This document shows, piece by piece, positions 8,929-27,061 of a DNA stretch of 27,638 nt; the stretch's first letter is position 1, and each line of letters begins with the position of its first letter. Made by a program: the position numbers and the translations under genes. The notes under the pieces were generated by a model. The model had not been told where the DNA came from. It worked only from the letters and a program-made list of their open reading frames with translations, and searched no databases. The DNA lies in the NCBI GenBank assembly GCA_046485285.1, contig JAWOHE010000013.1:1-27638 (forward strand). Direction: 5' to 3'. Source of the stretch: a bacterium (GTDB taxonomy: Bacteria; Hydrothermota; Tepidihabitantia; Tepidihabitantales; Tepidihabitantaceae).

Positions 8929-9975
8929 TCAGTCGGCCAGCACGAACTTGCCCTGCGCGGTCCCGTCCGACGCGGTCAGCCGCCAGGCGTAGATCCCGGC
9001 CGCCAGCCGGCGACCGGCGGCATCGCGGGGCTCCCAGCGCACGGTCTCGGGACCCCGGGCCGTGCCGGACTCCTCCGCCACCAGCCGCCCGGCGCTCGAA
9101 TACACTGCGAGCTGCCAACGCGAGCCGGGGGCGGCAGTGAACCTGACCTCAGCCCGGTCGCGGACCGGGTTCGGACCGCCGGTCGCGCTGAGCCGGGGCG
9201 CCGGCGTCCGCCGCCCTTCCGCGACGCCGGTGAGTTCGAGCAGCTTGACGATTCCGCCCTGATAGACCGGCCGCGAGGAATCGGACTGCTGGGTGGGATT
9301 CTGGAGGAACACGACGAGGTTGCAGTTGGCCTCGACCCAGTCGCTCTCGATCGTGAACGGCTGATACGCGGTGTCCGCGCCCATCGCCGGGACGGTGACA
9401 CTCGTGCCGGCGATGCCGGTGACGTAGTCGCGGCAGACGTGGTTGTGCCACTGGTCGCCGTTCGGCGCCGGGGAATTGATGCTGTCCTCGGTGATGACGA
9501 CGTACAGATTGGCGTCAATCGGCGCTGAAGTCTCGTTCACCATCTCGATTGCCAACTCGCCCGCACCGGCCCCGGGCAGGTAACTGCCGGTCAGGTTAAT
9601 GCCGACCTCGGCCGGCTCGCCGAGCTTCTGCTGGACCCAGTAGTCCCACGACGAATACTGGTAGCCGCGGTTCTTGCCGTCGATCCAGGCCCACGGCGTC
9701 GCGTAGTACCAGTTGCCGCCCGAGTAGTAGGGCGGCGGGTAGCTGAACCAGCGCTGCCGCGCCTCGGCGCAGTAGAGCGGATAGCCGGAGTTGACGTGCC
9801 ACTCGATGGCCGCGATCTGGCCCGGGTAGTTCGCCTTGATCTGGTCCACCGCCACACTGGCGGCGTTGCAGCTGCCTCAGCCTTCGGAGTAGGCCTCTTC
9901 GATGACCACGACCCGGTCAAAGCCGAAGCCGACAACGACACAGGCAAGCAGGGCAGCGACAATCAGCTTCTGCAC
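8929..9975 (-). CDS. Omp28-related thioredoxin-fold selenoprotein (UGSC) with C-terminal T9SS/FlgD-like domain, 348 aa
   Basis: AGGAGG SD and GTG 9975; signal peptide; RVVVIEEAYSEG-U(TGA 9877-9879)-GSC in frame with the 8929..9855 ORF; IEWH, TPWAWIDG, LYVVITED, HNHVCRD, VVFLQN; C-terminal PNP...AGRLV...AGIY. Confidence 0.88.
9847..9865 (-). promoter_or_regulatory. Putative bacterial SECIS hairpin
   Basis: CGCCGCCA-GUG-UGGCGGUG. The loop follows 19 nt after UGA and begins with G. Confidence 0.7.
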
Positions 9976-10045: not shown

Positions 10046-11443
10046 TCAGCGGCGTGGCCGGGCGCGGAAGGCGTGGAGAAAGACTTCCTTGTTGTAGTTG
10101 AGCCGGTTGAGCGCGAAAGTCCCGAGCACCTGCACCGTCCGGACCACCGTCCGACTGCGCCGCTCCTGGATCCGGGCCAGCAGCGGCAGGCAGGCGAAGC
10201 GGGCGAGCCCGCTGACCAAGAACAGGAGGTGGTAGTTGACGAAGGTCCGGCCGAAGAGCTCGAGCCGGAACCCGGCGAGAGCCTGGGCGATCGCCCCGCC
10301 CGCCAGCGACGCGGCGAAGGTCGCCAGCCCGACGACGACCCCGTAGATCGCGAAGTAGCTCTCCTTGCGCACCGGGTTGTCGCCGAGCGCGAACAGCAGG
10401 TTGACCAGCCCGAGGTTGGCCCCGGTCCAGAACAGGCCGTTGAGCACGCCGTCAATCCAGATCGGCAGCCGGAACGTCGGCGTCGCGATCACCCAGAGCA
10501 GCGGCATCACGCCGACGAACGCAAAGCTGATGACCGCGGCCGGCTTCGGGCCGAAGCGGTCGATGTGCCAGCCCCAGAAGAGCTGGAACAGGATACCGGT
10601 CGTCCCGCCGAGGATGGCGTAGACGCCGACCGAGCTGAATGAGAACTGGAGGTTGGTCAGGAGGTGCGCCATGTAGAACGGCGAGGCGAGCGTGCAGGTC
10701 AGGAACCAGACCCCGAGAAAGACAATCAGCCGGCGGAACTGGCGCTCCTCGACGAGCGGCCCGAGCAGCCGCTCGCGCAGCGGCACGTGCGGCCGCGGCA
10801 CCAGCGGCGGCTCGGGCTGGCGCGCGAGCAGCAGCGCCGACGCGACCCCGAACGCGACCGCGAGCAGGTAGGCGAGCCCGAAGCCGAGGTCCGGGTCGTG
10901 GGTCTTGACCCAGTCCATCGCCCGGCCGGCCAGGACGGTCAGCACCATCCCGATGCCGCCGAGGATGGCGTTGCGCCGGCCGAAGAACCGGCCCCGGCCA
11001 TCCTCGGGCACGAGGTCGCTCATCCACGAATTCCAGGTCGTCCCCGCGAACGCGAGCAGGACGTTATAAGCGAAGACGACGGTGAAGAACAGCCCAAGTC
11101 CCAGCTCGAGCTTCAGCAGTAGGTACGGCACCAGGACGATGAACGCCGCCCGGCCGACCCCGCTCGTCCAGACCGTCAGCCCGCGCCGGGACCCGGCGCG
11201 CCGGACGAGCGACCCGGCCGCGAGCGCGACGACCGAGACCAGCGCCGGTATCGCGGCGAGGAGCCCGATGTGGAACGGCCGGGCGCCGAGGTGGAGCGCC
11301 AGCCCGGTCAAGAACATCCCGCCCGCCAGCACGAGGTGGCTGTTGGCGAACGCGCCCTCGACGATCGAGATCCGAAGGCCGCGCCGAACTTCCGCCGGGC
11401 TCAGCCCGACGGCCCCGGCCGCCGGCCCGGGTTCGCCGCTCAC
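10046..11443 (-). CDS. MFS transporter
   Basis: About 12 hydrophobic segments, WMSDLVP..RGRFFG.RN, WGWHIDRFGPK. GTGA overlap with the lipA stop. Confidence 0.9.
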   Translation of the reverse strand: MSGEPGPAAGAVGLSPAEVRRGLRISIVEGAFANSHLVLAGGMFLTGLALHLGARPFHIGLLAAIPALVSVVALAAGSLVRRAGSRRGLTVWTSGVGRAAFIVLVPYLLLKLELGLGLFFTVVFAYNVLLAFAGTTWNSWMSDLVPEDGRGRFFGRRNAILGGIGMVLTVLAGRAMDWVKTHDPDLGFGLAYLLAVAFGVASALLLARQPEPPLVPRPHVPLRERLLGPLVEERQFRRLIVFLGVWFLTCTLASPFYMAHLLTNLQFSFSSVGVYAILGGTTGILFQLFWGWHIDRFGPKPAAVISFAFVGVMPLLWVIATPTFRLPIWIDGVLNGLFWTGANLGLVNLLFALGDNPVRKESYFAIYGVVVGLATFAASLAGGAIAQALAGFRLELFGRTFVNYHLLFLVSGLARFACLPLLARIQERRSRTVVRTVQVLGTFALNRLNYNKEVFLHAFRARPRR

Positions 11444-12375
11444 CGGCCCGCTCTCCTGCCGCCGGGCGCCAGCAGCGTGTCGGCGAGATAGGAACTCCGG
11501 ACCAGCGGCCCGCAGAACGCCGCCCGGAAGCCGAGCGCCCGCGCCTCATCCTCCCACTCCGCGAACCGCTCCGGCGCGACGTGACGCGCCACCGGCCGGC
11601 AGTGCCGCGCCGGCCGCAGGTACTGGCCGATGGTGACGATGTCACAGCCGGCAGTTCTCAGGTCGCGAAGCGCGTGGGAAACCTCTTCGTCGGTCTCGCC
11701 CAGCCCGGCCATCAACCCGCTCTTCGTCGGGATGCCGGGCGCCAGCCGCTTCGCGGTCGCGAGCACCTCGAGCGAGCGGCGATAGCCCGCCCGCCGGTCG
11801 CGCACCTCCGGGCTCAGCCGCTCGACCGTCTCGAGGTTGTGGCCGAACACCGCCGGTCCGGCCGCGAGCACCTGCCCGATGAGCTCCGCCCGGCCGCAGA
11901 AGTCGGGCGTCAGCACCTCAACCCGGACGCCACCCGTTCCTGTCCCCGCATCCTCGCCGCCGGCTTCCGGGTTCCGCGCCCTGACCTCGGACACGGTCCG
12001 GGCGAACTGCCCGGCACCGAGGTCGTCAAGGTCGTCCCGGTCCACCGAGGTCAGCACGACGTAGCGCAGGTCCAGCTCGGCCACCGCCGCCGCCACCCGG
12101 CCCGGCTCGCTCTCATCGACCGCGCCGCCCGGGTTGACGGTCGCGACCGAGCAGAACCGGCAGTTCCGCGTGCAGACCGCGCCAAGAATCATGAAAGTCG
12201 CGGTCCCCCGGTTCCAGCACTCGGCGAGATTCGGGCACCGGGCCGCACTGCAGACCGTCACGAGCCCGTGGGCCCGGAGCCGGGCGTTGACCCGCTCGAA
12301 CTCCTCGCCCTGCGGCAGGCGGGCGCGCAGCCAACGTGGCTTGCCCGCGCGGTCCGGTTCCGGGGCAGGGTTCAT
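11440..12375 (-). CDS. lipA: Lipoyl synthase
   Basis: KPRWLR, CX4CX5C (CSAARCPNLAEC), CX3CX2C (CTRNCRFC), TSVDRDDL, HNLETV, IGQYLRP, RSSY. Confidence 0.96.
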   Translation of the reverse strand: MNPAPEPDRAGKPRWLRARLPQGEEFERVNARLRAHGLVTVCSAARCPNLAECWNRGTATFMILGAVCTRNCRFCSVATVNPGGAVDESEPGRVAAAVAELDLRYVVLTSVDRDDLDDLGAGQFARTVSEVRARNPEAGGEDAGTGTGGVRVEVLTPDFCGRAELIGQVLAAGPAVFGHNLETVERLSPEVRDRRAGYRRSLEVLATAKRLAPGIPTKSGLMAGLGETDEEVSHALRDLRTAGCDIVTIGQYLRPARHCRPVARHVAPERFAEWEDEARALGFRAAFCGPLVRSSYLADTLLAPGGRRAGR

Positions 12376-12397
12376 CGGCGTGACGGGTTAGGGGCGA

Positions 12398-14005
12398 CTA
12401 GGCGCGAATTCTCAGCCCGGACGGCTTGCAGTTCCAGACGCACTCGAAGCAGCGGATGCACTCTGCCTGGTTCGGGTCCTGGTAGGCCGAGATGTTCATC
12501 GGGCAGACCCGCTGGCAGAGCGTGCAGGAAGTGCACCGGTCGCTCACGACCTCCATCCGCAGCAGGCTCACCTTGTTGAACAGCGCATAGACCGCGCCGA
12601 TCGGGCAGACCAGCCGGCAGAACGGCCGCTTGATGCCGATTGCCGCGACGACCACCAGCAACAGGAATCCGACCTTCACCCAGTACAGCCAGCCGACCAG
12701 CCCGCGCAGGGCATTGACCGGGTCCCAGAGCACGAGCGGAATACCGGCGCCGAGCGTCCCCTGAGGGCAGAGCTTGCAGAACCACGGCTCGATGGTCAGG
12801 TAGGAGGCAAGGCCGGCGACGAGCAGCAGCACGGCGTACTTGGCCGTCGTCGAGGGCAAGCTCACCTTCGCCAGCCGGTCCAGCAGCAGGATGACGAGCC
12901 CGGCCGCGGCCGCCAGCGCGATGCCGAGCCCGAACCCGGACAGCGGTCCGATGGCGAACTCCGCCGGCCCGAGCCAGCCGAGCAGGAACGCGGCCGGCAC
13001 GGCAATCGCGGCCGCGACCCAACCGCCGGAAAGCCCGAGGACGAGAATTCCCGCGAACCCGGCGACGACCCCGAAGCCGGCGCCGAACCTCAGCCACGTC
13101 AGTGCGCCGATGCCGACCGCAACGAGGAAACTGCCCACCCAGAGCCGCCTCGGGACGTCGAACTTGCCTGTCAGCGCAACTGCCAGCAGTGCGCCGGCGA
13201 ACGGCAGCCAGCCGAACAGCAACACCTGCCACCACGCCAGCTTGAGCAGCGCGACGAGCAGGAACCCGGCGACCGCCGCGACGCCGGCGATGACGCCGAA
13301 CGACAGCCACTTCTTCGCCTTTGCCCGGCGCCCGACCGGGACCTTCTGGAGCAGGTCCTGCCACAGCCCGAACGGGCATATCCACGCGCAGGCCGCCCGG
13401 CCGACCAGCGCGCCGACGACGATGAACGCGCCCAGCGCCAGCCACGGGATGGTCCTCATCCCGATCATCTGCTGGGTCGAGCCGATCGGGCAGGCGAACA
13501 CCGCCAGCGGCCCGCCATAGCAGTTGAGTATCGGCTGAGGGATGTGCTTGAAGAAGCCCTGGTAGAGAATCTTGTCCTGCAGGTAGGCAAGGATGTAGGC
13601 GTTGAGAACCACCGCCGAGATGACCTGCACGACCCGGAACGGCGCGACCCGCCGCCTGACGAACAGCGTCACGACCAGCATCAGCGCGATGAACGGCAGG
13701 GTCGCGAAGAGCAGCACCCGGGCCGGCGCGATGCCCTCGAAGAAAGCCAGCCAGGCTGAGACCAGCAGCCCGGCCGCGACAATCGCTCCGAACGCGGGCC
13801 AGCGCCGGCGGTCCTCCGGCCGGCCGGCGTAGAGTGCCGCGAAGAGCTCGACCAGCACCAGCGGCAGCCAGCCGAACGCGAGCACCCGCCACCAGTTGAA
13901 GCCGGCGAACGCTACCAGCGCCGCAATCACCAGCGTCGAAAGCCCGGCGATGACGAAGAACCAGGTCCAGCGGACCCTGCCGCCGGACCGCCGGGCGTCA
14001 GTCAA
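12398..14005 (-). CDS. Polytopic membrane 4Fe-4S binding protein (NapH/MauN/RdxA-like)
   Basis: NCYGGP...CPIG, GRAACAWICPFG, FCKLCPQG, RPFCRLVCPIG, CTSCTLCQRVCP, CIRCFECVWNC; many TM helices; TTG start with GGGAG SD. Confidence 0.9.
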   Translation of the reverse strand: MTDARRSGGRVRWTWFFVIAGLSTLVIAALVAFAGFNWWRVLAFGWLPLVLVELFAALYAGRPEDRRRWPAFGAIVAAGLLVSAWLAFFEGIAPARVLLFATLPFIALMLVVTLFVRRRVAPFRVVQVISAVVLNAYILAYLQDKILYQGFFKHIPQPILNCYGGPLAVFACPIGSTQQMIGMRTIPWLALGAFIVVGALVGRAACAWICPFGLWQDLLQKVPVGRRAKAKKWLSFGVIAGVAAVAGFLLVALLKLAWWQVLLFGWLPFAGALLAVALTGKFDVPRRLWVGSFLVAVGIGALTWLRFGAGFGVVAGFAGILVLGLSGGWVAAAIAVPAAFLLGWLGPAEFAIGPLSGFGLGIALAAAAGLVILLLDRLAKVSLPSTTAKYAVLLLVAGLASYLTIEPWFCKLCPQGTLGAGIPLVLWDPVNALRGLVGWLYWVKVGFLLLVVVAAIGIKRPFCRLVCPIGAVYALFNKVSLLRMEVVSDRCTSCTLCQRVCPMNISAYQDPNQAECIRCFECVWNCKPSGLRIRA

Positions 14006-14020
14006 TCGGTTCGCTCCCAG

Positions 14021-14048
14021 GTGCCGGGGCTACACGAGCCCCATGCAC
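14021..14048 (-). promoter_or_regulatory. Putative bacterial SECIS hairpin spanning the stop codon
   Basis: GUGC-AU-GGGGCU-CGUGU-AGCCCC-G-GCAC. The loop follows 17 nt after UGA. Confidence 0.7.
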
Positions 14049-14167
14049 GACAGTCATATCTGGGCCGCGAAGCGGTGAATCGTCTCCGGGTCGCCCTTGA
14101 CTATTCCGATCACGACCGCGGCGACGCCCGCCAGCGCGACCACCGCGAACAGGACGCGGCGCCTCAC
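14030..14167 (-). CDS. 45-aa single-TM selenoprotein (ULSC), CD1871A-like CxxC-motif family
   Basis: GGGAGGG SD and GTG 14167; MRRRVLFAVVALAGVAAVVIGIVKGDPETIHRFAAQI-U(TGA 14054-14056)-LSCMGLV-TAG. Matches the 'ICLxCIG' terminus of small peptides encoded upstream of such 4Fe-4S proteins. Confidence 0.82.
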
Positions 14168-14214
14168 CTGCGTCCCTCCCCGGCCGTCCGCGTCCACCTG
14201 TGCTTCGTTCATTC

Positions 14215-15690
14215 TCAGAACCTCGAGATGAGCTGGGCCTTCACGCCCCGGAACGGCGCCTCGAACCGGCAGACCCCGCCCGAACAGGTGTAGCCGCCGC
14301 GCTCGGCCCCGACCCGGACCCGGAGCATGTTGCGCTGGGTTATCGACCAGACCGCCTCGAACACCGGCCAGCCCTGCTCGCCGTTGTAGCGCTTGTCGAG
14401 CTTCTCGCTGACGTGCTGGTAGCCGACCGTGAACAGGAGCGCCTCGTCGATGCCGTAGGAGAACGCCGCCGCCAGCTCGCGGTACTTCCAGGTCTCGCCC
14501 TCGGTCGAGCGCTCGTCGACGAACGCTAGCTCACCCTCGAGCGCGAAGCTGTGCCGGCCGACGGCGTGGTTCAGGTGGACCACCGGCTTGTCGGTCGCCC
14601 GGTGGGCGGTGCCGAGCTCGACGTTCTGCTGGACCATGTGGTTGAACGCCAGCTCGAACGTCCAGTCGCTGGTCGGATAGCGCGCCTTGCCCTCCCACTC
14701 GACCACGCCCGCGCTGGTGTTGTCGTGGGTGAACAGCCGGCCGTAGTCGGCCTCGAGGTAGAGCGTCGACCACGGCGTCGTGGTCGCGGTCACCCCGAAC
14801 CCGCGCTCGTCGACCCCGCGGTTCATCGCCACCCCGGACTTTGTCGGCGTCGGCGGGTCGTTCCAGTGGTAGAGCCCGGCCGGGAACCCGATGTTGTCGT
14901 AGTCCATCAACTGGCCGAGCACGCTGAACCCCGGGAACGTCACCGTCCCGCTCGCGTACCAGCCGAGCCCGCTCTCCCGCCCGCCCAGCCCGGCCGCGGT
15001 CCCCAGCCGGCGGCAGACCTCGCCGTACACCTCGACCGGCCCGACCGCCGAGGTCAGGTTGCCGCCGAAGAGCTCGGTGAACGCCCGCGCCTGCGGGTCG
15101 CTCTCGCGGTTGACGCGGACGTAGCGCCCGCCGAACCCACCCCACCGGGCCGGCCGCGACTCGAAATTCGCGCCCAGCACCTGGTCGGAGGTGTCCGCGG
15201 CGTTCACCAACCGGTAGGTGTTCTCCTGGAAGAATATGTCGCGCAGCCGCGCGCCGAGCAGGACCAGCTCGGACCGGAACGGCAGCCGCGCGGTCCCGCG
15301 CAGGCCGTGCAGGCTCTTGTAGTGCCGGAACTCGTCGTCCTTGTAGGCCCGGAGCGCCAAACCCTTGCCGAAATCCTGGTAGAACCGGCCGTAAAGCACC
15401 TCGAGCTGCTTCGGGCTGTAGGCGACGGTGTAGTCAAGCAGGCGGAGCGGCCGACGGGCGTCGCTCCACGGCTTCGACGGCTCGTAGGCGAACAGCCCGA
15501 GGTTGCCGCGTAGGTCGCCGTAGCGCAGGTTCATATCGAGCAGCTCCTCGAGCTGGGTCGAGAACGTCGAGTCGAAAAAAGACCAGAACTCGGCCCGGTT
15601 CACGCCGCTGACCGACAGCTCGGCCGCCCGGGCCGGGCCCAGGACGGCGAGACACGCAACCGCGAACAGGCTGACCCTGACTGCCTTCAT
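14215..15690 (-). CDS. DUF6029-like outer-membrane beta-barrel protein
   Basis: Signal peptide, GRFYQDFGKGLALR, amphipathic strands, C-terminal RGGYTCSGGVCRFEAPFRG...SRF ending in Phe. Confidence 0.82.
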   Translation of the reverse strand: MKAVRVSLFAVACLAVLGPARAAELSVSGVNRAEFWSFFDSTFSTQLEELLDMNLRYGDLRGNLGLFAYEPSKPWSDARRPLRLLDYTVAYSPKQLEVLYGRFYQDFGKGLALRAYKDDEFRHYKSLHGLRGTARLPFRSELVLLGARLRDIFFQENTYRLVNAADTSDQVLGANFESRPARWGGFGGRYVRVNRESDPQARAFTELFGGNLTSAVGPVEVYGEVCRRLGTAAGLGGRESGLGWYASGTVTFPGFSVLGQLMDYDNIGFPAGLYHWNDPPTPTKSGVAMNRGVDERGFGVTATTTPWSTLYLEADYGRLFTHDNTSAGVVEWEGKARYPTSDWTFELAFNHMVQQNVELGTAHRATDKPVVHLNHAVGRHSFALEGELAFVDERSTEGETWKYRELAAAFSYGIDEALLFTVGYQHVSEKLDKRYNGEQGWPVFEAVWSITQRNMLRVRVGAERGGYTCSGGVCRFEAPFRGVKAQLISRF

Positions 15691-15717
15691 CTTCCTTGAG
15701 TCTTCGCGCCGGGGCCG

Positions 15718-16248
15718 CTACTCGCCCGCATCCTCGGGGCTGTCCAGCGGCTCCTCGGGCAGCCATTTCAGGAACTCGGCCCTGATCTTCGCCTCGTCAC
15801 CCTTCTTGTAGCCGATGTGGGTGTAGACGACCTCGCCCTTGGTGTTAATCAGGTACGAAGTCGGCTTGATGATGATGCCGTACGCGCTCTTGACCTCCTG
15901 CTGCGCGTCGAGCAGGCAGACGTACGGCCACCTCTTCGCCGCGACGAACGCCTTGACCTTGGCCCCGTCCGCCGGCTTGTCCACCGACAGCGCGATTATC
16001 TGCAGGCCGTAGGGCGCGAGCTCCTCGTAGATCGGCACCAGCGCGTCGAGCTCGGCGATGCAGTTCACGCACGGCAGGTCCCAGCACTCCATGTAGACCG
16101 GCCCGCGCTTGAGCATCTCGGACAGCGTGTGCTCCTCGCCGTTCACGTCCGTCAGCGTAAAGTCCTGCGCCTTCTCGTACTTCACCTCGGCGGCGAAAAC
16201 CGGCCCGGCCGCCAGCGCTACCACCACTGCCAGTCCCAACAGCTTCAT
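15718..16248 (-). CDS. TlpA/ResA-like periplasmic thiol-disulfide oxidoreductase
   Basis: Signal peptide, DFTLTD.NG, W..PCVNC..E, LSVD, cis-Pro motif KPTSYLIN; GGAGGTG SD. Confidence 0.92.
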   Translation of the reverse strand: MKLLGLAVVVALAAGPVFAAEVKYEKAQDFTLTDVNGEEHTLSEMLKRGPVYMECWDLPCVNCIAELDALVPIYEELAPYGLQIIALSVDKPADGAKVKAFVAAKRWPYVCLLDAQQEVKSAYGIIIKPTSYLINTKGEVVYTHIGYKKGDEAKIRAEFLKWLPEEPLDSPEDAGE

Positions 16249-16261
16249 CGCAACACCTCCG

Positions 16262-17038
16262 TCATTCCCGCGCCAGCTTGCGCGTCACCACTGTCTGCAT
16301 CACCGCCCGGGTCGCCGTGTCCTGGACGAACACCGCCACCCCGAGCCGGTCCTGGCGCCAGCCCCGGTAGGGCGTCGCCAGCACCGTGTCGAGCTCGGTC
16401 GCGTAACGGAGCCGGACCGGCACGCCCCACGGCCCGCCGATGATGTCCGCCGCGATCGGCACGTACGACGTGTCGGTGCTCCCGAACCGCACCCGCGTCA
16501 CACTGTCCTGGAACACCACCGCCACCAGCATCAGCCCGTCGATATCATCTACCAGCGTGTCGAGCGTGGTAATCCGCACGCCGACCCGCAGTTCGCTGCC
16601 GACGATACCGGTCGCCGCGGTGTCGAGCGCCATCTCGAGCATCGTCTTCCGCGACCGGGCGGCATCGACCCGCGACCGGAGCGCGTCGTAGAGCGTCTCC
16701 TGGAACGCGGCGTCGCCGCCGTCGAAATACGTCACCGGCTCGAAGCCCAGCCCGTAGCCGTACCACTGCGCCCGGCGCAGGGCCGTCACGGTCGCCAGCG
16801 TATCGAACAGCGTATCCGAATGATACGTGAAATAGGCCAGCGAATCGCCGAACTCGTACGACAGCCGTTCAAGAGACCGCTCCGCGGCCTCGCAGTAACT
16901 TCAGCCCGCGCTCGAGAACACCTCGCTCAGCACCACCCGGTTCGCGGCCATGGTGATGAGCGGGGCGATCGAACACTGGGCGGTCAGGCCGAAGACCGCG
17001 GCCGCCGCGGCGAGCGAAAACAATCTGCGTCTGGTCAT
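16262..17038 (-). CDS. Omp28-like thioredoxin-fold selenoprotein (USYC), possible lipoprotein, 258 aa
   Basis: The ORFs 16901..17083 and 16262..16789 share a frame and are joined through a single TGA (16901-16903): RVVLSEVFSSAG-U-SYCEAAE...FTYH...EPVTYFDG...VAVVFQD...VAVFVQD. Signal peptide with LTAQC. Confidence 0.85.
16873..16891 (-). promoter_or_regulatory. Putative bacterial SECIS hairpin
   Basis: GAGGCCGC-GGA-GCGGUCUC. The loop follows 17 nt after UGA and begins with G. Confidence 0.7.
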
Positions 17039-17045
17039 TACAGAT

Positions 17046-17074
17046 ATGCTAAAAGACCCGACCGAGTGAGTCAA
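17046..17074 (-). promoter_or_regulatory. sigma70 promoter of the redox operon, leaderless
   Basis: TTGACT-17-TAGCAT, with ATG 17038 seven nt downstream and no SD. Confidence 0.65.
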
Positions 17075-17093
17075 GCCGGGCAAACCCGAACCG

Positions 17094-18617
17094 CTACTCC
17101 GGCCTGACCACTTTCACCCGCTCAACCCGCTCGCCCGAGTCCACCAGGCAGTAGTACACCCCCGGGGGACGGTCGCCGAGCGCAACGCTGACGACGTGCT
17201 GTCCTGGCCCGAGCCGGCCCCGGTACAGCCGCCCGCCGGCCCGCCCCCCGGCGTCGAACAGGGTGATGCTCACGTCCGCGGACGCGGCCAGTCCAAACCG
17301 CAGTATCGCGACCCCGCCGCGACTGACGACCGCCGCCTGCCCGGACCCGGGCCGGGACGGCCGTTGCTCCTCGATCGCCGTGAAGTGGTAGCCGTCAAAC
17401 CAGACTTGGTCGGTATCCAGCTTCGCATATCCAAGGTACCCGCCGCTGGTCAGCCAGGAGTATCCCACCTGCGCGCCGATGCCCAGCACCATCCGGAAGT
17501 CGTTGCGCACACCCCGCCCCTCCCAGACATTCGGTCCGACCGGGCGCGAGTAGGCGTACACCAGCGAGTCGCGGTTGCGGGTCGGCTCGGGCATCGTCGC
17601 CGCGCCGCGGAAGAGGTCGTCGGCGTATCCCCGGCGCACGCGCGGGAGCCTCGCGTCCCAGGTCACCCGCGTCTGGTTCACCGGCGGCCAGAACCCGGTG
17701 GTCCACCCCGCGCCGCCATTCGTCGTCCAGCCCTGGCCGACCCCGACGATGCTGTCGGCAACGCTGCTGCAGTAAAGCACCACCGCCGCCTGCGCCGTGC
17801 GCCCGGCCTCCCGGTCCGCAGCGACCGACGCCGCCCACACCCGCCCGTTGCCGGCCGAGTCGAGCCGGGCGACCGCCGAGTCCGCGCCTGCGAGGTTCTC
17901 GGTGTAGCGTGTGACCTGCACCCACGCCGAGTCCCGGCTGTTGCAGGCGAGGTACACGCAGCCGTCCCCGCCCGCAGCCAGCGCCGGCAACTCGCAGCCG
18001 GTCGCGGCGACCCGGTGGTTGCCCCAGGTCTGGCCCGAGTCGCTCGAGGCGGCGAGGTGTATCTCTCCCGCCTGCGTCTCCCAGGCCGCGAACAGACGCT
18101 GGGGCGACTCGATGTTCAGATCTGCCGCAACCCGCACGACGGTGTCACTGCCCGGCACGTGGATCCATGCCGGGCTGACCATCATCGGCCGGTGCCGCAG
18201 CAGCCAGAGGCCGATGCCCGGTGGGTTGCCGACCAGCAGGTCGTAGAGCCAGGTGCCGTTAGCGTCACTGCCCACCCGGAGCTCGTAGTCCGCGAACGAC
18301 GCGAACGGGTCGTCGGGGGCAATCTCGTAGGCAGTCGTCCAGCTCCAGCCTCCGTCGGTCGATCGCCAGACGTGGACCCGGTCACCCGGGCCGCCGCCCG
18401 GCTCGAGCAGGCCGACGTAGATGGTGCCGGCCGTGTCCGAGTCAGTGACCAGCTTGCCGGTTGTAAGCGCGCGGCCGACCGCGCCGACCAGCACGTCGTC
18501 GCCCCAGTCGCGCATCGTGTCGGCGAGGACCCGGACTTCAGGGGCGTGGCAGTACTCCACCCGCCCGGACGGCACGTGGTAGACAGGGAAAGCGCAGAGC
18601 AGGACCATCAGCAGCAC
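17094..18617 (-). CDS. Secreted BNR/Asp-box beta-propeller protein with T9SS-like C-terminal domain
   Basis: Asp-boxes RSTDGGWSW, SSDSGQTW, TTNGGAGW; C-terminal LFDAGGR...PGVYY...KVV; AGGAGG SD. Confidence 0.8.
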   Translation of the reverse strand: MLLMVLLCAFPVYHVPSGRVEYCHAPEVRVLADTMRDWGDDVLVGAVGRALTTGKLVTDSDTAGTIYVGLLEPGGGPGDRVHVWRSTDGGWSWTTAYEIAPDDPFASFADYELRVGSDANGTWLYDLLVGNPPGIGLWLLRHRPMMVSPAWIHVPGSDTVVRVAADLNIESPQRLFAAWETQAGEIHLAASSDSGQTWGNHRVAATGCELPALAAGGDGCVYLACNSRDSAWVQVTRYTENLAGADSAVARLDSAGNGRVWAASVAADREAGRTAQAAVVLYCSSVADSIVGVGQGWTTNGGAGWTTGFWPPVNQTRVTWDARLPRVRRGYADDLFRGAATMPEPTRNRDSLVYAYSRPVGPNVWEGRGVRNDFRMVLGIGAQVGYSWLTSGGYLGYAKLDTDQVWFDGYHFTAIEEQRPSRPGSGQAAVVSRGGVAILRFGLAASADVSITLFDAGGRAGGRLYRGRLGPGQHVVSVALGDRPPGVYYCLVDSGERVERVKVVRPE

Positions 18618-18626
18618 CGACCCCTC

Positions 18627-21191
18627 CTATTCCAGCTTCACCAGCTTGCACCGGGCCGCACGGCCCGGGGAAGGTTCCGGCTCGGCGAAGTAGACGCCCC
18701 GCGCCGTCTGCCCGCCGAGCTCGTCCGCCCCGTTCCAGGCAACCGCGCCGCTCGCGCCGACCGCCAGCGTTCGCACCAGCCGCCCCGCGCAATCGCGGAT
18801 GGTGACCGCGCCGCCCGGGGCGGCCTCAAACCGGACCTCGCGCCGGAACGGAACCGGCGCCGCGCGCAGGGTCACCGGGCTGGTGCTGGCCGGCTTCGCT
18901 TCGGCCACTCCGCCGTAGGGCGAGAGCACGCCCTTGATGCGGGGAACCCCGGCCGGGTGACTGTTGATGCTGTCCACCAGCCCGGCGTAGACCATCAGCA
19001 TCTCGCCGCCCGGGCTCGCGGCCAACGCCGGCACCGGAACCTGCCGTTCGTCGGCGACGAGCGGGAAGGTGTCGAACACCGTCGTGCTACGTCCGACCCG
19101 CGCGCCCTGGACCAGCCAGGACGAACCTGCCAGCTCGGCCCAGACGAGGTAGTGATGCGCCCCGTTGAAGACAACGTCCGCGTTGTCGTAGTAGTTCGGG
19201 GACTGCCGGACGAATGCCGGCGGCGAGTCGAGCGCAACCCCGGCCGTGTCCACCCGCAGGCAGCAGATGGCATAATCGGCGCCCTGCCGGTACACCCAGG
19301 TGACGAAGTAGTTGTCGCCATCGAAGGTCAGTGCGGGTTTGCGGTCATGCCCGGGCAGGTTGCTGTAGTAGCGTACTGAATCCAGGGCAGTGCCGTCGTG
19401 GGACAAGCGTCTTCCGGCAACCTCGCTTCCGTAGTGCAGACGGGACTCAGTCCACAGAACGAGAAGCCGTGTTCCATCGAATCGTGCTATCGGGTAGTAG
19501 TTCCAAGTCGTCGAGGGGGGGGTTACGTCAAAGCCGCCCGGATGCGTTACCGAGCCGTCCGTGAGCACGAAAGTTCCCCGGATGTTCGACCCACTGCCTG
19601 CTCGCCAGACTACGAACCACGAGTCTCCGGCGACACAGACGCTGGCTTCCAAGCTGCCCCCGGACGACAGTACCAAGTTGACCGTATCCACCACGCGGCC
19701 CAGTGTGTCAACTCTTGTCCCGTGGAGAGCCTGGCTGAGGCTGCGCAAGTCGGACCAGATGACCAGGAATTGCGTCCCGTTGAACGCCACCTGCGGCGAC
19801 TGTTGGTCGCCCGGGACCGAGCAGATGACAAAAGGGACCGGGTCGAGGGCCGCGCCCGCGTGAGATATTCGCATCCCGTAGATGTCGAGCCCGGTCGTCT
19901 GGCCGCGGTAATCGGTCCAGGCGACGAGATACTGCCCGCCGCCGTCGGCAATTGCCGGCTGCAATTGGGCGTAGTAGAGCGGTATCCACAGGTCCAGCAG
20001 GCCGAATCCTTCCGGGTCGAGCACGCTGTCTCGTGTCGACACCCGGGCCGCCCGGATGTCCCCGCAGACCGTTCCATCCGGTATATCCCGCCAGGCCACC
20101 AGCGCGAGCGTGTCCGCCCCGGCAACACAGGGCTGGTCCTGCGTCCCGGCCGCGACGGTGACCGGGACCCCGTCCGGGTTGGCGACACTGCCGTCCGCCC
20201 GCACACGCGCGGCGTAGAGGTCGGGCACGGTCGCGGAGTTGCGCGAATCAACCCAGACCGCCAGCGCGTCGTCGCCGAGCGCGGTCAGCCGCGGCCGCCG
20301 CTGGGGGCCGGGTGCGGCGGCGACGCGGACCGGCGCGCTGTCGAGCACCGCGCCTGCCGGGGACAGCCGCACGCCCCAGATCTCCGAATCGAGCAGGGCG
20401 CTTTCCTCCCAGGCGATGAGCGCGTTCTCACCGAGTCTGACCACCGCCGGCCGTTCCTGGTCGTACCGGTCCGGCCACAGCTCAATGCCGGCGGTGTCGA
20501 GGACCGCCCCGTCCGGTCCCAGCCGCGCGCACCGGACCTGCGGATACTGACCGTTCCGCCAGTCCTCCCACGCGACGACGAAGCCGCTGTCGGTTGCGGC
20601 GACGGCGGGTTGCGCCTGCGCGCGGCCCGCACGGCAGACCGGCACCGCCGGACCGACCGCACCCGACGAATCGAGGATTGCCGCGTAGACGTCGCCGTCC
20701 CCGGACTGCTCCTCCCAGGCCACCAGCCAGCGCCCGTGCCCATAGGCAGCCGCCGGGCTGCGCGAGTCGCCGCTCCCGGCGCGGATGGGGAGTGCCTGCG
20801 GGTCGAGCAGGTTGCCGCCCGCGTCAACCCGCGCGCCGAATATGTCCCAGCGCGTCCCGCTGCGACGGTCCTCCCAGACGACCAGACACGCACCCGCGCC
20901 CCCGGCGACCTGCGGACTGCGCTGGTCCAGCGAGCAGTCCGAAACCACGAACGCGTGGGAGTCGAGCACCTCGCCCGAATGCGCGACCCTTACAGCGAGC
21001 AGATCCCAGTCGGTCCCGGTCCGGGTCTGCCAGGCGACAAGGAAGTTGTCGCCGCAGACCGCCGCGGCGGGCATCTCCTCGATGCTGTCCCCCGGCCACC
21101 AGACCGGGGTGGTGTCGAGGATGAAGCTCTCGGGCACGGGCTGGCCTGCGGCAAGCGCGGCAAGCAGGACGACGGGAACGGCGATGCGCAT
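18627..21191 (-). CDS. Secreted 14-repeat beta-propeller protein with FlgD/T9SS-like C-terminal domain
   Basis: Signal peptide; repeats P.VA.DG..YLVVW.D.R...DIYGARV...G.VLDP; C-terminal AGRLVR...WNG.D...GVYF. Confidence 0.85.
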   Translation of the reverse strand: MRIAVPVVLLAALAAGQPVPESFILDTTPVWWPGDSIEEMPAAAVCGDNFLVAWQTRTGTDWDLLAVRVAHSGEVLDSHAFVVSDCSLDQRSPQVAGGAGACLVVWEDRRSGTRWDIFGARVDAGGNLLDPQALPIRAGSGDSRSPAAAYGHGRWLVAWEEQSGDGDVYAAILDSSGAVGPAVPVCRAGRAQAQPAVAATDSGFVVAWEDWRNGQYPQVRCARLGPDGAVLDTAGIELWPDRYDQERPAVVRLGENALIAWEESALLDSEIWGVRLSPAGAVLDSAPVRVAAAPGPQRRPRLTALGDDALAVWVDSRNSATVPDLYAARVRADGSVANPDGVPVTVAAGTQDQPCVAGADTLALVAWRDIPDGTVCGDIRAARVSTRDSVLDPEGFGLLDLWIPLYYAQLQPAIADGGGQYLVAWTDYRGQTTGLDIYGMRISHAGAALDPVPFVICSVPGDQQSPQVAFNGTQFLVIWSDLRSLSQALHGTRVDTLGRVVDTVNLVLSSGGSLEASVCVAGDSWFVVWRAGSGSNIRGTFVLTDGSVTHPGGFDVTPPSTTWNYYPIARFDGTRLLVLWTESRLHYGSEVAGRRLSHDGTALDSVRYYSNLPGHDRKPALTFDGDNYFVTWVYRQGADYAICCLRVDTAGVALDSPPAFVRQSPNYYDNADVVFNGAHHYLVWAELAGSSWLVQGARVGRSTTVFDTFPLVADERQVPVPALAASPGGEMLMVYAGLVDSINSHPAGVPRIKGVLSPYGGVAEAKPASTSPVTLRAAPVPFRREVRFEAAPGGAVTIRDCAGRLVRTLAVGASGAVAWNGADELGGQTARGVYFAEPEPSPGRAARCKLVKLE

Positions 21192-21194
21192 CGC

Positions 21195-24143
21195 TCAGTC
21201 CAGCAGGACGGACTTCCGTTCAGCGAGGCCGCCCGCGGCGTCGGTCAGCCGGACGAAGTAGACCCCGGCCGCGACCGGTCGGCCGGACGCGTCGCGCCAG
21301 TCCCAGCCCGGCCCTCCCCCGGCGCCGGGCTCGACGACGGCGACCCGGCGCCCGTCGGTCCCGAACACCTCGAGCCTGAGCAGTCCCGGCCCGCCCGAGC
21401 CGGCGCACGTCAGCGCTTGCCCGCGCCGCAGGACGCTCGCCCCGGCCAGCACCGGCAAGCCGCCGGGCGGTCCTTCCTCGAGACCGGTCGGTAGGTACGC
21501 GAACTGCCAGGCAACGCTGAAACGGCTCCACAGCGAGTCGTCGAAGACACGACACGTCCAGCGATGAGTCGCGCCCGGGACGATGACATCGTCGGGCACG
21601 GTACAGCGGGGCGCTTCTGAGCAGTACCGCCAGAGCGTATCCCCGCCGAGCATTACCCGGAAGTCGAAGCTGTCGAGCGCGGGCCTGAGTGAGTCAACCA
21701 ACAGGACTACCGGCAGTTCCGGGATGGAGTGGTTGTGAGGCGGCCAGACGAGCCCTGGCGGCGCCGGTCGACCGTCGTCGTGCAAGAGCCGTCCCCAGAT
21801 GCGGTTCCGCCCGCACGGGCGGTGATTCACGGAGTCGGCCCGGGCCGAGTAGACTGCCATGAAACGGGACGAGCCCCCCGAACAGACTCCCGGGTTCGCC
21901 GTAACATCATCGGCTTCGGCAATGCCCAGGCTTTCGACTGCGCCACTCACAGGGTCGTACCACACCCCTTTCAGAAGCCTTCCTTCAGGCCAGACGGCGA
22001 GATACCTCGGGCTTCCGTAGGCGACTGCGGGCTCGGGCTTTGCGGGCGACCCGCTGGCGGACAGTATCATCGCGTCTCCGACTCCTCCCTCGCGGGAAAC
22101 CGGGACGCCGTAAATGGCGGCCAGCGAAGTCTGTTCGAAGACCACCAGGAAATCCCGTCCGTCGCTGGCGACCGCCGGAGGACCCTCATAGAAGTGCGCC
22201 GGAGTCAGGTCCAGTCCCTCAGGATCCGGGTAGGTCCTGTCCGGGGCGATGCGCCCTGCGTAGATCTCGTTCGCGTATCCCGAGTTCCACCGCTGGTCGA
22301 TCCAGGTCAAGAGGCCCAGTCCGGAGTCGGCATAGACGATGTCGGGCTTGTAGCCCTCGCCGCTGATGCCAACTCCCCTGCGGTGGATCGCCCCGCCCTG
22401 AGCGACCCAGGCGGCATCGAGGTGCCTCAGGTTGCCCCCGGTCTCACGGTACCAGGCAACGTAGAAGTATGTCCCATCGAATGCGACCGCCGGACCGTGC
22501 TCTCCCACCGACGTGCCGGGAGAGAGCCAGATACCGTTCCCGTCAAGCACGTCGCCATCCCTGGTGACCCGCGTGCCGAAGATCTCGCTGCCATAGCCAC
22601 CGGAAACGCGCAGGTCTCTCCACACGACGAGGTAGCAACTGTCTCCCCAGGCGACATCAGCGTATCCCTGCTCCGCAGCCGCCGCGCTGATGAGCAACGG
22701 CACGGAATCGAGCAAGCCTCCGGAACCGGAGACGCGCATGCCCCGGATGTCCTCGCCGGTGCCGACATCACGGTCCTCCTGCCACACCACAAGGTAGTTC
22801 TCTCCATCAAACGCAAGCGACGGCCGTGACTGGTTCGCGAACTTCGGCACGAGGGCCTGCGTGTCCGGCACCGGGAATGCGCTGTCGAGCACGGTTCCGT
22901 CCGGGCTGATGCGGGTCGCGAAGACGTCGGCGTCGTTCGGCCAGCGGAAATCGAGCCAGACGAGAAGCCAGTTGCCCGCGCCGGCGGCGACTGCCGGGTT
23001 GGACTCTGTCTGAGGCTTGCGCGTCCAGGCTGACCCGCCCGGGTCGAGAACGACCCCGCTCGGGGTCACCCGCGCGCCATAGATGTCCGGGTTGCCGTCG
23101 CGCCAGTCCTGCCACGTGACTGCGTAGTTCGCCCCGTCGAACGCCACCGCCGGGTTCTCCTGCGCGTGGCTGTACGTGCAGACCGCAATGGGACGCCGGT
23201 CGAGCACTACGCCATCCGGGCTCACCCGCGCCGCGAGTATATCTGCCAGCGCGCCCTCGCCGGCCCGCCAGACAGCGAGGAAGTTCTCTCCATTGGTTGC
23301 CACGACGGGAACCCGGGCGTCACCACCCTCGCCGGCGATGATGATTGGCATCGTATCCAGCGGCACCCCCGCGCTGTCAAGCACGGTGCCAAGTATGTCC
23401 CACTGCCCGGTCCATTTGCTCTCCCACGCAACCAGGCTGCCGTTCGGCAGTGCCGCAACCGCCGCAAGCTGGTTTGCGTGCAGCAGGGAGAGCCCGTGGT
23501 GTATGCGCAGGCCATTGGGGTAGCGGACCTGTCCCGTGGTGGAGACCGGTGTTGCCCGGATGTCCCAGCGACGACCATCAGGCGAGGCATTCCACGCGAC
23601 GATGAACTTGGTGCCGTCGTAGGCTACCGCCGGGTTGTAGTGCCGCTGGAGGTCATCGGCTATAACTATCCCCCCGGGGTTGACTCTGCCGTTGGCCGAT
23701 ACAAGCGCGCCTCCAATCTTCGGAACGTAGTTCGTTGCATACCCCCAGAGAACGAGGTAACTGGTATCGCCCCAGGCCACCGCGCATCGTGCGGCTCCGG
23801 ACTGGGTAAATGTCCTGATGATGACCCCACCGGGGTCCAGAAGTTGGCCCGTGGCGGAAACCCGCGCGCAGTACACCCGGTTGTCCGGGTAGAGGGCCTG
23901 CTTCCAGACCACCAGGTAGTCCGTGCCGTTCGAGGCCACCGCCGGAGTGAGTACCGGATCCGCGGTTCTGGTCAGGCCAATCGGTACAGTGTCCAGCATG
24001 AACCCGACCGTGTCCTGCACAAAGGCCTGCGGCGACTCGCCCCGGGTGCTGTTGACCTGCTCGACAATGGCGTGCGGGTCGAACGGCAACTCACCTGAAA
24101 CTGCGGCCGCCAGCGTGCAGACCAGCGAGAAGAGCGTTCGCAT
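21195..24143 (-). CDS. Secreted 14-repeat beta-propeller protein with extra Ig/Fn3-like domain and FlgD/T9SS-like C-terminal domain
   Basis: Same repeat as its neighbours; extra PAPPGLVWP...WSRFSVAWQF segment; C-terminal DGRRV...WDWRD.SG..VAAGVYFVRL. Confidence 0.85.
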   Translation of the reverse strand: MRTLFSLVCTLAAAVSGELPFDPHAIVEQVNSTRGESPQAFVQDTVGFMLDTVPIGLTRTADPVLTPAVASNGTDYLVVWKQALYPDNRVYCARVSATGQLLDPGGVIIRTFTQSGAARCAVAWGDTSYLVLWGYATNYVPKIGGALVSANGRVNPGGIVIADDLQRHYNPAVAYDGTKFIVAWNASPDGRRWDIRATPVSTTGQVRYPNGLRIHHGLSLLHANQLAAVAALPNGSLVAWESKWTGQWDILGTVLDSAGVPLDTMPIIIAGEGGDARVPVVATNGENFLAVWRAGEGALADILAARVSPDGVVLDRRPIAVCTYSHAQENPAVAFDGANYAVTWQDWRDGNPDIYGARVTPSGVVLDPGGSAWTRKPQTESNPAVAAGAGNWLLVWLDFRWPNDADVFATRISPDGTVLDSAFPVPDTQALVPKFANQSRPSLAFDGENYLVVWQEDRDVGTGEDIRGMRVSGSGGLLDSVPLLISAAAAEQGYADVAWGDSCYLVVWRDLRVSGGYGSEIFGTRVTRDGDVLDGNGIWLSPGTSVGEHGPAVAFDGTYFYVAWYRETGGNLRHLDAAWVAQGGAIHRRGVGISGEGYKPDIVYADSGLGLLTWIDQRWNSGYANEIYAGRIAPDRTYPDPEGLDLTPAHFYEGPPAVASDGRDFLVVFEQTSLAAIYGVPVSREGGVGDAMILSASGSPAKPEPAVAYGSPRYLAVWPEGRLLKGVWYDPVSGAVESLGIAEADDVTANPGVCSGGSSRFMAVYSARADSVNHRPCGRNRIWGRLLHDDGRPAPPGLVWPPHNHSIPELPVVLLVDSLRPALDSFDFRVMLGGDTLWRYCSEAPRCTVPDDVIVPGATHRWTCRVFDDSLWSRFSVAWQFAYLPTGLEEGPPGGLPVLAGASVLRRGQALTCAGSGGPGLLRLEVFGTDGRRVAVVEPGAGGGPGWDWRDASGRPVAAGVYFVRLTDAAGGLAERKSVLLD

Positions 24144-24146
24144 CGC

Positions 24147-26747: not shown

Positions 26748-26751
26748 GGCT

Positions 26752-26780
26752 AGTGTAGTCCGGGGCGTTCCCCGTGTCAA
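26752..26780 (-). promoter_or_regulatory. sigma70 promoter of the propeller gene array
   Basis: TTGACA-17-TACACT. Confidence 0.7.
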
Positions 26781-27061
26781 CCCGGTTCTACGCTCGGCAA
26801 CCCGCGCGGACCCCTGCGCGCCAGCACTTCCCGAGCGCCCCGGCTGGCGCCTACCCGGGCGCGTCCCAAGCCGCGATACGGGGACGGAGGTGAGCACAAA
26901 ACGGGTCGGCATCAATTGCCTGGCTCCGACCGGTCCGGTAGTCAGCCGGGTCGTGGGCGGCTACACCCAGAGCACCTGAATCAGCCCGGCCAGTCTGGCC
27001 GCTGGAGCCAGGCCCGGTCCGCGCCGGCCGGGCCCACTGCGCGCCCCACCCCCACCTGCCT

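Follow-up and report, generated by a model that had tools for sequence, protein, structure and literature searches.

The stretch analysed here, 27,638 nucleotides (nt) long and referred to throughout as the window, is positions 1 to 27,638 of contig JAWOHE010000013.1 (assembly GCA_046485285.1), from a bacterium of the family Tepidihabitantaceae in the phylum Hydrothermota. On its minus strand lies a very small gene for a membrane peptide with an in-frame TGA near its 3' end; a hairpin overlaps the end of the gene, and a gene for a membrane 4Fe-4S protein of the Pfam Fer4_5 type follows directly. The features of the peptide gene are as follows.

14030..14167, minus strand: predicted membrane selenopeptide gene, 45 codons plus TAG (translation, start conserved in relatives, NF040920 match, alignment of 26 relatives)
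14175..14179, minus strand: Shine-Dalgarno sequence GGAGG, 7 nt 5' of the GTG start (read off the sequence)
14054..14056, minus strand: in-frame TGA, codon 38, very probably read as selenocysteine (Sec, U); the same column holds TGC or TGT in 14 distinct cysteine (Cys)-form relatives and TGA in 31 distinct Sec forms
14021..14048, minus strand: hairpin resembling a selenocysteine insertion sequence (SECIS), core stem-loop 14043-14025, loop CGUGU at 14036-14032 (RNA fold and covariation)

The peptide gene, its in-frame TGA and its hairpin

The gene starts with GTG at 14167-14165 and stops with TAG at 14032-14030. Its product opens with V-RRR, continues with the uncharged residues 5-23 (VLFAVVALAGVAAVVIGIV, 19 residues), which K24 follows, and then reads KGDPETIHRFAAQI, the TGA of codon 38 and the tail LSCMGLV. 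The architecture is a short positively charged N-terminus, one transmembrane (TM) helix and a 22-residue tail with Sec-Leu-Ser-Cys (UxxC), a motif that lies 8 residues from the C-terminus. An earlier sequence-only reading of the window had proposed this 45-residue peptide, with its Shine-Dalgarno sequence, GTG start, single TM helix and U38-LSCMGLV end, and all of its coordinates check on the minus strand. Its description of the peptide as unannotated and absent from the track of open reading frames (ORFs) was right only in part: the read-through form is indeed missing, but the mechanical ORF listing holds a 52-residue ORF at 14054-14212 (minus strand), which starts at ATG 14212 and is terminated at the TGA, and the same 52-residue truncation is present for this contig in the public protein collection. 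Public entries for relatives are mostly 37-residue 'hypothetical proteins', assigned, where a source is named, to candidate division WOR-3. The 5' part of the peptide is already on record; it is the read-through form that is absent. With regard to the start, the start codon in relatives stands 36-37 codons 5' of the U/C codon (37 in the window and in most loci), and in three loci a stop codon immediately precedes it; this conserved position and these directly preceding stops favour GTG 14167 over the upstream ATG 14212, and with it the 45-residue product.

A Pfam scan of the peptide returned no family. When U was read as C, NCBIfam NF040920 (CD1871A family CXXC motif-containing protein) matched the peptide from position 2 to position 37 of the profile's 38 (E 5.3e-6, 26.2 bits), and the ORF truncated at the TGA gave no NF040920 match at E <= 1. 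The remaining NCBIfam matches of the peptide were two TM-only noise hits, and neither TsoA (LULAxC) nor any other NCBIfam model of a small selenoprotein gave a match at E <= 1. The affiliation with a CD1871A-like family, as first proposed, holds as a full-length model match; it does not hold by the curated cut-off, which is 32 bits. This cut-off was likewise reached in none of 61 related genomes in a six-frame search with NF040920, Cys forms included. The peptide resembles the NF040920 proteins in its length of about 45 residues, its single TM helix, its C-terminal C-x-x-C-[MI]-G tail and its Fer4_5 4Fe-4S membrane protein neighbour, a trait not taken from a curated definition of that family, but differs from them in having Sec in place of the first Cys, and in its score. 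On sequence grounds it is best described as a divergent Sec-containing branch of the CD1871A family, and not as a member by the curated cut-off.

The same six-frame search returned full-length NF040920 matches with one in-frame TGA in 17 of the 61 genomes and stop-free matches in others. Thirty loci were returned, of which 26 were analysed; L025, L026, L035 and L036, partial profile matches with no peptide, were left out. Among the 26 loci, 16 end in Q/H-I-U-LSCMGLV-TAG and 10 in C-L-S/D-C-M/I-G. An enlarged locus set comprised 31 distinct TGA-form and 14 distinct Cys-form DNAs, and across it TGA alternates with TGC/TGT in one alignment column. The seven codons for LSCMGLV follow the TGA in all 31 TGA forms, through 14 DNA versions, and TAG is the stop codon in every one. 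Within the 21 nt after the TGA, variable columns at codon positions 1, 2 and 3 number 0, 0 and 6; the corresponding counts for the 36 codons before it are 30, 27 and 35. Variation confined to third positions after the TGA points to translation under strong purifying selection rather than to an untranslated spacer. Two expectations of the sequence-only reading, namely that relatives would alternate TGA with TGC at this codon and would conserve the LSCMG codons after it, are thereby borne out, the latter by synonymous-only variation in 31 of 31 forms. Tail, stop codon and hairpin are all kept in the 31 distinct TGA forms, a conservation far beyond chance.

The hairpin starts 11 nt 3' of the UGA and covers the final four sense codons (ATG GGG CTC GTG), the TAG stop and the bases immediately 3' of it. 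Its core folds as U-GGGGCU / CGUGU loop / AGCCCC-G, and in this genome GUGC/GCAC extends the stem to 14048-14021. Over 16 Sec forms, 94.6% of cells are paired at the hairpin, compared with 31-64% in slid controls, and the covariation score is 0.194; shuffles give 0.071, and 0 of 500 reached the observed value. All 31 Sec forms hold the five core pairs, while the pair that joins position 3 of the Gly codon to the nucleotide right after the stop varies (GC in 20, CG in 9 and UA in 2), so that synonymous Gly-codon changes go with compensatory ones past the stop. The 14 Cys forms are unpaired at the site, with a mean minimum free energy of -1.6 versus -12.0 kcal/mol in the Sec forms. The 11-nt spacing and the GU in the loop agree with the minimal E. 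coli SECIS. A terminator reading of the hairpin was rejected, as no T-run lies 3' of it and the terminator scan called none there. Relatives at loci L077 and L075 carry variant Sec tails (QI-U-LGCMGLG and GI-U-IPCMGLGK); in these paralogs the stop is moved and a GGGNC.../...GNCCC hairpin is kept at the same distance from the UGA.

The genome, whose assembly is 88% complete, encodes the machinery for selenocysteine insertion: selB (357.5 bits), selA (537.7 bits) and selD (334.8 bits) all score above their curated cut-offs, and a tRNA-Sec with anticodon tca lies on contig C49. The selD gene has its own in-frame TGA (motif SCAG-U-ASK), and a hairpin 3' of this UGA has a 5-nt loop, AGUUG, compared with CGUGU in the peptide hairpin, a two-example comparison that provides weak support. 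selD and selB are adjacent on the same strand (contig C37:9674-12542). The covarying hairpin and the complete machinery add support to the early suggestion of an extremely small selenoprotein.

The alternative that the UGA is an ordinary stop would leave a 37-residue (or 52-residue) product devoid of the motif, and would make the conserved downstream stretch only an RNA element, for instance a hairpin ahead of the Fer4 gene that acts in stability or coupling. Gene callers do terminate the ORF at the TGA, the hairpin does overlap the intergenic region before the Fer4 gene, and an Rfam scan of 13900-14300 gave no match at E <= 10 and hence no SECIS family. According to a 2026 preprint, many bacterial SECIS elements, and most of those identified in it, have no Rfam hits. 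On the other side stand the third-position-only changes after the TGA, with LSCMGLV encoded by 14 of 14 DNA versions, and the conservation as codons of the 12 nt between the UGA and the hairpin as well. Cys-form relatives, moreover, use other codons for the same tail and have no hairpin, the family match is obtained with read-through only, and Sec machinery is present in the genome. We therefore regard an ordinary stop as highly improbable. Judged from these sequence comparisons, the locus is very likely a true Sec-decoded gene for a 45-residue selenoprotein, and its UGA is almost certainly read as selenocysteine, aided by a hairpin of the SelB type.

The distribution of the peptide was followed with a profile of the 26 peptides in a phylum sample of 272 genomes, 200 of which gave matches. 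One TGA is present in 57 of the 150 matches listed, with 90 further matches standing outside that list (this count and the family count below were read off the match tables by eye). Among the matches listed, 55 of the TGA rows belong to the organism's own family and 2 to a second family of the same order, and the matches from all other families of the phylum are Cys forms. Within its own family every one of 44 genomes has a peptide match; the 73 matches divide into 56 with and 17 without a TGA, and one TGA form or more is present in 42 of the 44 genomes. One member of the same genus (G003, 86% complete) shows, at locus L011, a Cys-form peptide alone, whose tail deviates (CLSCMGFV), and has no match to Fer4_5 at all; this may reflect loss or an assembly gap.

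The Fer4_5 partner and the conserved gene block

The gene that follows the peptide gene encodes the protein that we treat as its partner.

12398..14005, minus strand: polytopic membrane 4Fe-4S protein of 535 residues with about 14 TM helices (Pfam Fer4_5, 44.8 bits vs cut-off 22)

Its TTG start at 14005 lies 24 nt beyond the peptide stop. The genome has no second Fer4_5 gene. The product ends in a C-terminal two-cluster ferredoxin domain. The 16 cysteines of the protein make up two CX3CP motifs, eight ferredoxin-type Cys, and the pairs C162...C172-P and C410-x-x-C413-P, and all 16 are invariant in 47 homologs. A positive-inside tally shows lysine/arginine (K/R)-rich loops alternating with K/R-poor loops, with C162/C172 and C410/C413 in the poor ones. 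The loops with these two pairs are accordingly predicted to face outward, and the CX3CP motifs and the ferredoxin domain to lie on the cytoplasmic side. Residues 1-128, the first four helices, form an extension, in that many homologs of 412-438 residues cover only 77-78% of the partner and some tblastn matches begin at residue 129.

The partner has the Fer4_5 modules, the CX3CP motifs and the C-terminal two-cluster ferredoxin domain of NapH/NosR/CcoG-type proteins. It differs from these proteins in its roughly 14 helices, in two extra invariant Cys pairs that are predicted to face outward, and in scores far below the equivalog cut-offs (napH 49.7 bits vs 213, NosR 24.6 vs 1000, ccoG 19.9 vs 316.7); the match to ccoG_rdxA_fixG is weak (E 2.9e-4). 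It further differs in having a dedicated gene for a UxxC/CxxC micro-subunit, and no nap, nos or cco genes nearby. The pair offers a concrete handle for asking what NapH-like 'orphan' polyferredoxins do.

That the 4Fe-4S membrane gene 24 nt downstream is the usual partner, as the sequence-only reading had stated, is upheld by synteny. A Fer4 homolog lies 3' of the peptide in 20 of the 26 short loci, and a DUF6029 gene lies 5' of it in 18. The association extends to distant taxa: in distant members of the phylum all that is kept is the pair of the peptide and a short Fer4_5 protein of 264-327 residues, and at least 30 genomes outside the organism's own family, among the matches listed, have the peptide a few hundred nt 5' of a Fer4_5 match on the same strand. 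Fer4_5 is present in 220 of the 272 phylum genomes, and families without the peptide are mostly also without Fer4_5, so that entire families have neither. The peptide gene is tied to a Fer4_5 membrane iron-sulfur protein, the peptide being encoded just upstream, and it is probable that the two are functional partners. A gene for a pyridine-nucleotide-disulfide oxidoreductase lies downstream of the pair at locus L086, and nearby on the opposite strand at L089.

The pair is embedded in a longer block, whose other genes are listed below in the direction of transcription.

16262..16789, minus strand: first ORF of the block, distantly Omp28-like (no Pfam match; tblastn in 7 loci)
15718..16248, minus strand: exported TlpA/ResA-like thioredoxin-fold protein with a signal peptide and C60-V-N-C63 (Pfam AhpC/TSA and Redoxin; ResA-type NCBIfam matches below cut-offs)
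14215..15690, minus strand: DUF6029 protein with a signal peptide and a C-terminal Phe, directly 5' of the peptide (Pfam DUF6029, 63.9 bits)
11440..12375, minus strand: lipoyl synthase LipA, downstream in the block (NCBIfam lipA, 364.9 bits; synteny)
10046..11443, minus strand: transporter of the major facilitator superfamily (MFS), downstream in the block (Pfam MFS_1; synteny)

The order Omp28-like ORF, thioredoxin, DUF6029, peptide, Fer4, LipA, MFS, (Omp28) is found, whole or in large part, in ten loci that come from nine relatives within the family. By tblastn, the first ORF recurs 5' of the thioredoxin gene in L071 and L076-L080 (38-45% identity) and in L075 (30%). The DUF6029 protein is probably an outer-membrane barrel.

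A proposed outward relay and its alternatives

These elements can be arranged in a mechanism, parts of which are more conjectural than others. The peptide would insert N-in/C-out, its N-terminus being cytoplasmic and its tail outside because RRR precedes the helix (positive-inside rule), and this would place the UxxC tail on the periplasmic face, near the two outward Cys pairs of the partner. There the tail would cycle between selenol/thiol and selenenylsulfide. Electrons would leave the partner's 4Fe-4S clusters in the cytoplasm, cross by way of the CX3CP motifs at the membrane face and the outward cysteines of that protein, and reach the peptide's UxxC, which would hand them to the exported TlpA-like thioredoxin that the operon also encodes, and on to periplasmic or outer-membrane clients. 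Selenocysteine at the first position of a CxxC motif is characteristic of redox-active sites and the usual mark of a nucleophilic redox residue. Table 1 of the review PMC13188914 has many UxxC entries for comparison. Together with RRR and the alternating loops of the partner, this position favours a relay model, and the redox-shuttle role that had been suggested for the peptide would fit the operon and the predicted topology. The Sec/Cys exchange would also single out the leading residue of the CxxC tail as the one that does the work in this two-gene membrane module, which is widespread but unstudied. We put the outward-facing relay forward tentatively, at a little under even chances, and the combination of Sec peptide, Fer4_5 partner and outward relay appears, with modest confidence, to be the best explanation as a whole. 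If the Sec relay is true, the 45-residue subunit would be, to our knowledge, among the smallest selenoproteins and one of very few bacterial integral-membrane ones.

Several results weigh against this explanation, in addition to the family score below its cut-off and the empty Rfam scan given above. The topology was derived from hydropathy and charge counts; a single-sequence AlphaFold2 model of the partner was unusable for topology (mean predicted local distance difference test score 49, predicted template modelling score 0.28), and a search of the partner sequence against solved structures returned 0 matches at E <= 0.01. Among the sequencing runs listed for the locus, two are DNA runs with small shares and none is an RNA run. 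A separate CcdA/DsbD-type gene (DsbD_TM, 77 bits) lies on contig C68:8119-8745 of this genome, so that the module is not needed as the sole route of reductant export. Metal-binding selenoproteins, moreover, are among the entries of Table 1 of PMC13188914 that have Sec in CxxC-type motifs. Finally, relatives have a paralog of the peptide (with Sec in L074 and with Cys in L081, L083 and L084) that is not accompanied by Fer4_5. This copy (L074:5976-6200 region, L081:6035, L083:6165) lies between a gene for an S-adenosylmethionine (SAM)-methyltransferase and one for an Omp28/InhA-MAM protein of 576-631 residues. At the Cys-form loci L081 and L083 a second Omp28 protein and an AIR-synthase-like protein then follow, a B12-binding (corrinoid) protein is encoded farther downstream in L083 and L074, and URO-D stands beside it in L074. 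Metal or metalloid handling fits this Fer4-less setting as well as a redox relay does.

A true selenopeptide whose UxxC tail serves to bind or pass on a metal or metalloid (e.g. Cu(I), or Hg, As or Se species), with the partner acting as a CcoG-like metal reductase, is accordingly a rival to be considered, although we judge it unlikely. It could draw on the neighbours of the paralog (the SAM-methyltransferase, AIR-synthase-like and corrinoid proteins, and a cation-efflux gene in one locus), on the many partner homologs that carry CcoG/RdxA-type Fer4_18 (PF13746) in precomputed Pfam, and on the weak match of the window's own partner to ccoG_rdxA_fixG. TlpA-type proteins also act in copper-site assembly. 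Table 1 of PMC13188914 includes CopZ-like proteins, a P-type ATPase and a MerT-like protein among its metal-handling UxxC/CxxU selenoproteins. In the window, however, the conserved block has no gene for a metal transporter or chaperone, its constant neighbour is an exported thioredoxin, and the CcoG equivalog score of the partner (19.9 bits) is far from the cut-off of 316.7.

A further alternative, to which we give a low probability, also accepts the selenopeptide; here the Sec/Cys residues and the outward cysteines of the partner would ligate an extra iron-sulfur cluster or other cofactor, or the peptide would only aid the assembly or stability of the Fer4_5 protein. The four invariant partner cysteines that are predicted to face outward could, with two chalcogen ligands from the peptide, form a cluster site, and small single-helix subunits often stabilise membrane complexes. 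Iron-sulfur clusters on the periplasmic face are unusual, however, and Sec/Cys exchange at only the first CxxC position reads more naturally as the pattern of a nucleophilic redox residue than as that of a symmetric ligand pair.

Returning to the relay, its proposed outcome, the delivery of cytoplasmic reducing power to an exported TlpA-like thioredoxin, would resemble that of CcdA/DsbD with TlpA/ResA/CcmG partners. It would differ from these systems in lacking DsbD_TM, for which no gene of the block has a Pfam match, and in its proposed donor, which would be iron-sulfur clusters and not thioredoxin. The idea that the module replaces a missing CcdA/DsbD was rejected, since the genome has a DsbD_TM gene. 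It is conceivable, though we consider it doubtful, that the peptide and the Fer4_5 protein form an undescribed inner-membrane reductant route, driven by iron-sulfur clusters instead of by CcdA/DsbD, with Sec on a 45-residue subunit as the outward hand-off.

Relation to described selenoproteins, and the flanking regions

Like the bacterial UxxC selenoproteins of the thioredoxin fold (Sec forms of thioredoxin, glutaredoxin, Prx-like and TlpA-like proteins, all entries of Table 1 of PMC13188914), the peptide has Sec first in a CxxC-type motif. As in those proteins, Cys homologs exist and a SECIS hairpin lies just 3' of the UGA; unlike them, the peptide has no thioredoxin fold, is 45 residues long and membrane-anchored, and has a SECIS-like hairpin that overlaps the stop codon and the intergenic spacer. 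The 119 families and subfamilies in that table of the May 2026 review do not include the peptide family, and a term search in the BSepDB paper (PMC13326102) returned nothing, although the BSepDB database itself may hold such entries. Searches confined to one literature library found no paper naming 'CD1871A' or 'NF040920', and nothing relevant on selenocysteine, NapH, polyferredoxin, small membrane protein and WOR-3. The peptide is a Sec variant of a known but unstudied family, and the mechanism of Sec insertion itself is not new. What it adds is a probable selenoprotein family whose products present-day gene callers shorten to 37 residues, and a clean example of a putative SECIS overlapping a stop codon and intergenic spacer, which would be useful for training finders on very short genes.

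Elsewhere in the window, the sole sigma-70-like promoter match within 11000-17500 lies at 17074-17046 (minus strand), just 5' of the first ORF of the block. The regions 18627-26915 and 8929-9855 (both minus strand) hold three very large ORFs (854, 982 and 922 residues), two with a C-terminal FlgD immunoglobulin (Ig)-like domain, together with an Omp28-like protein that shares this C-terminal domain. These ORFs probably encode secreted or surface proteins with tails of the type IX secretion system (T9SS) type.

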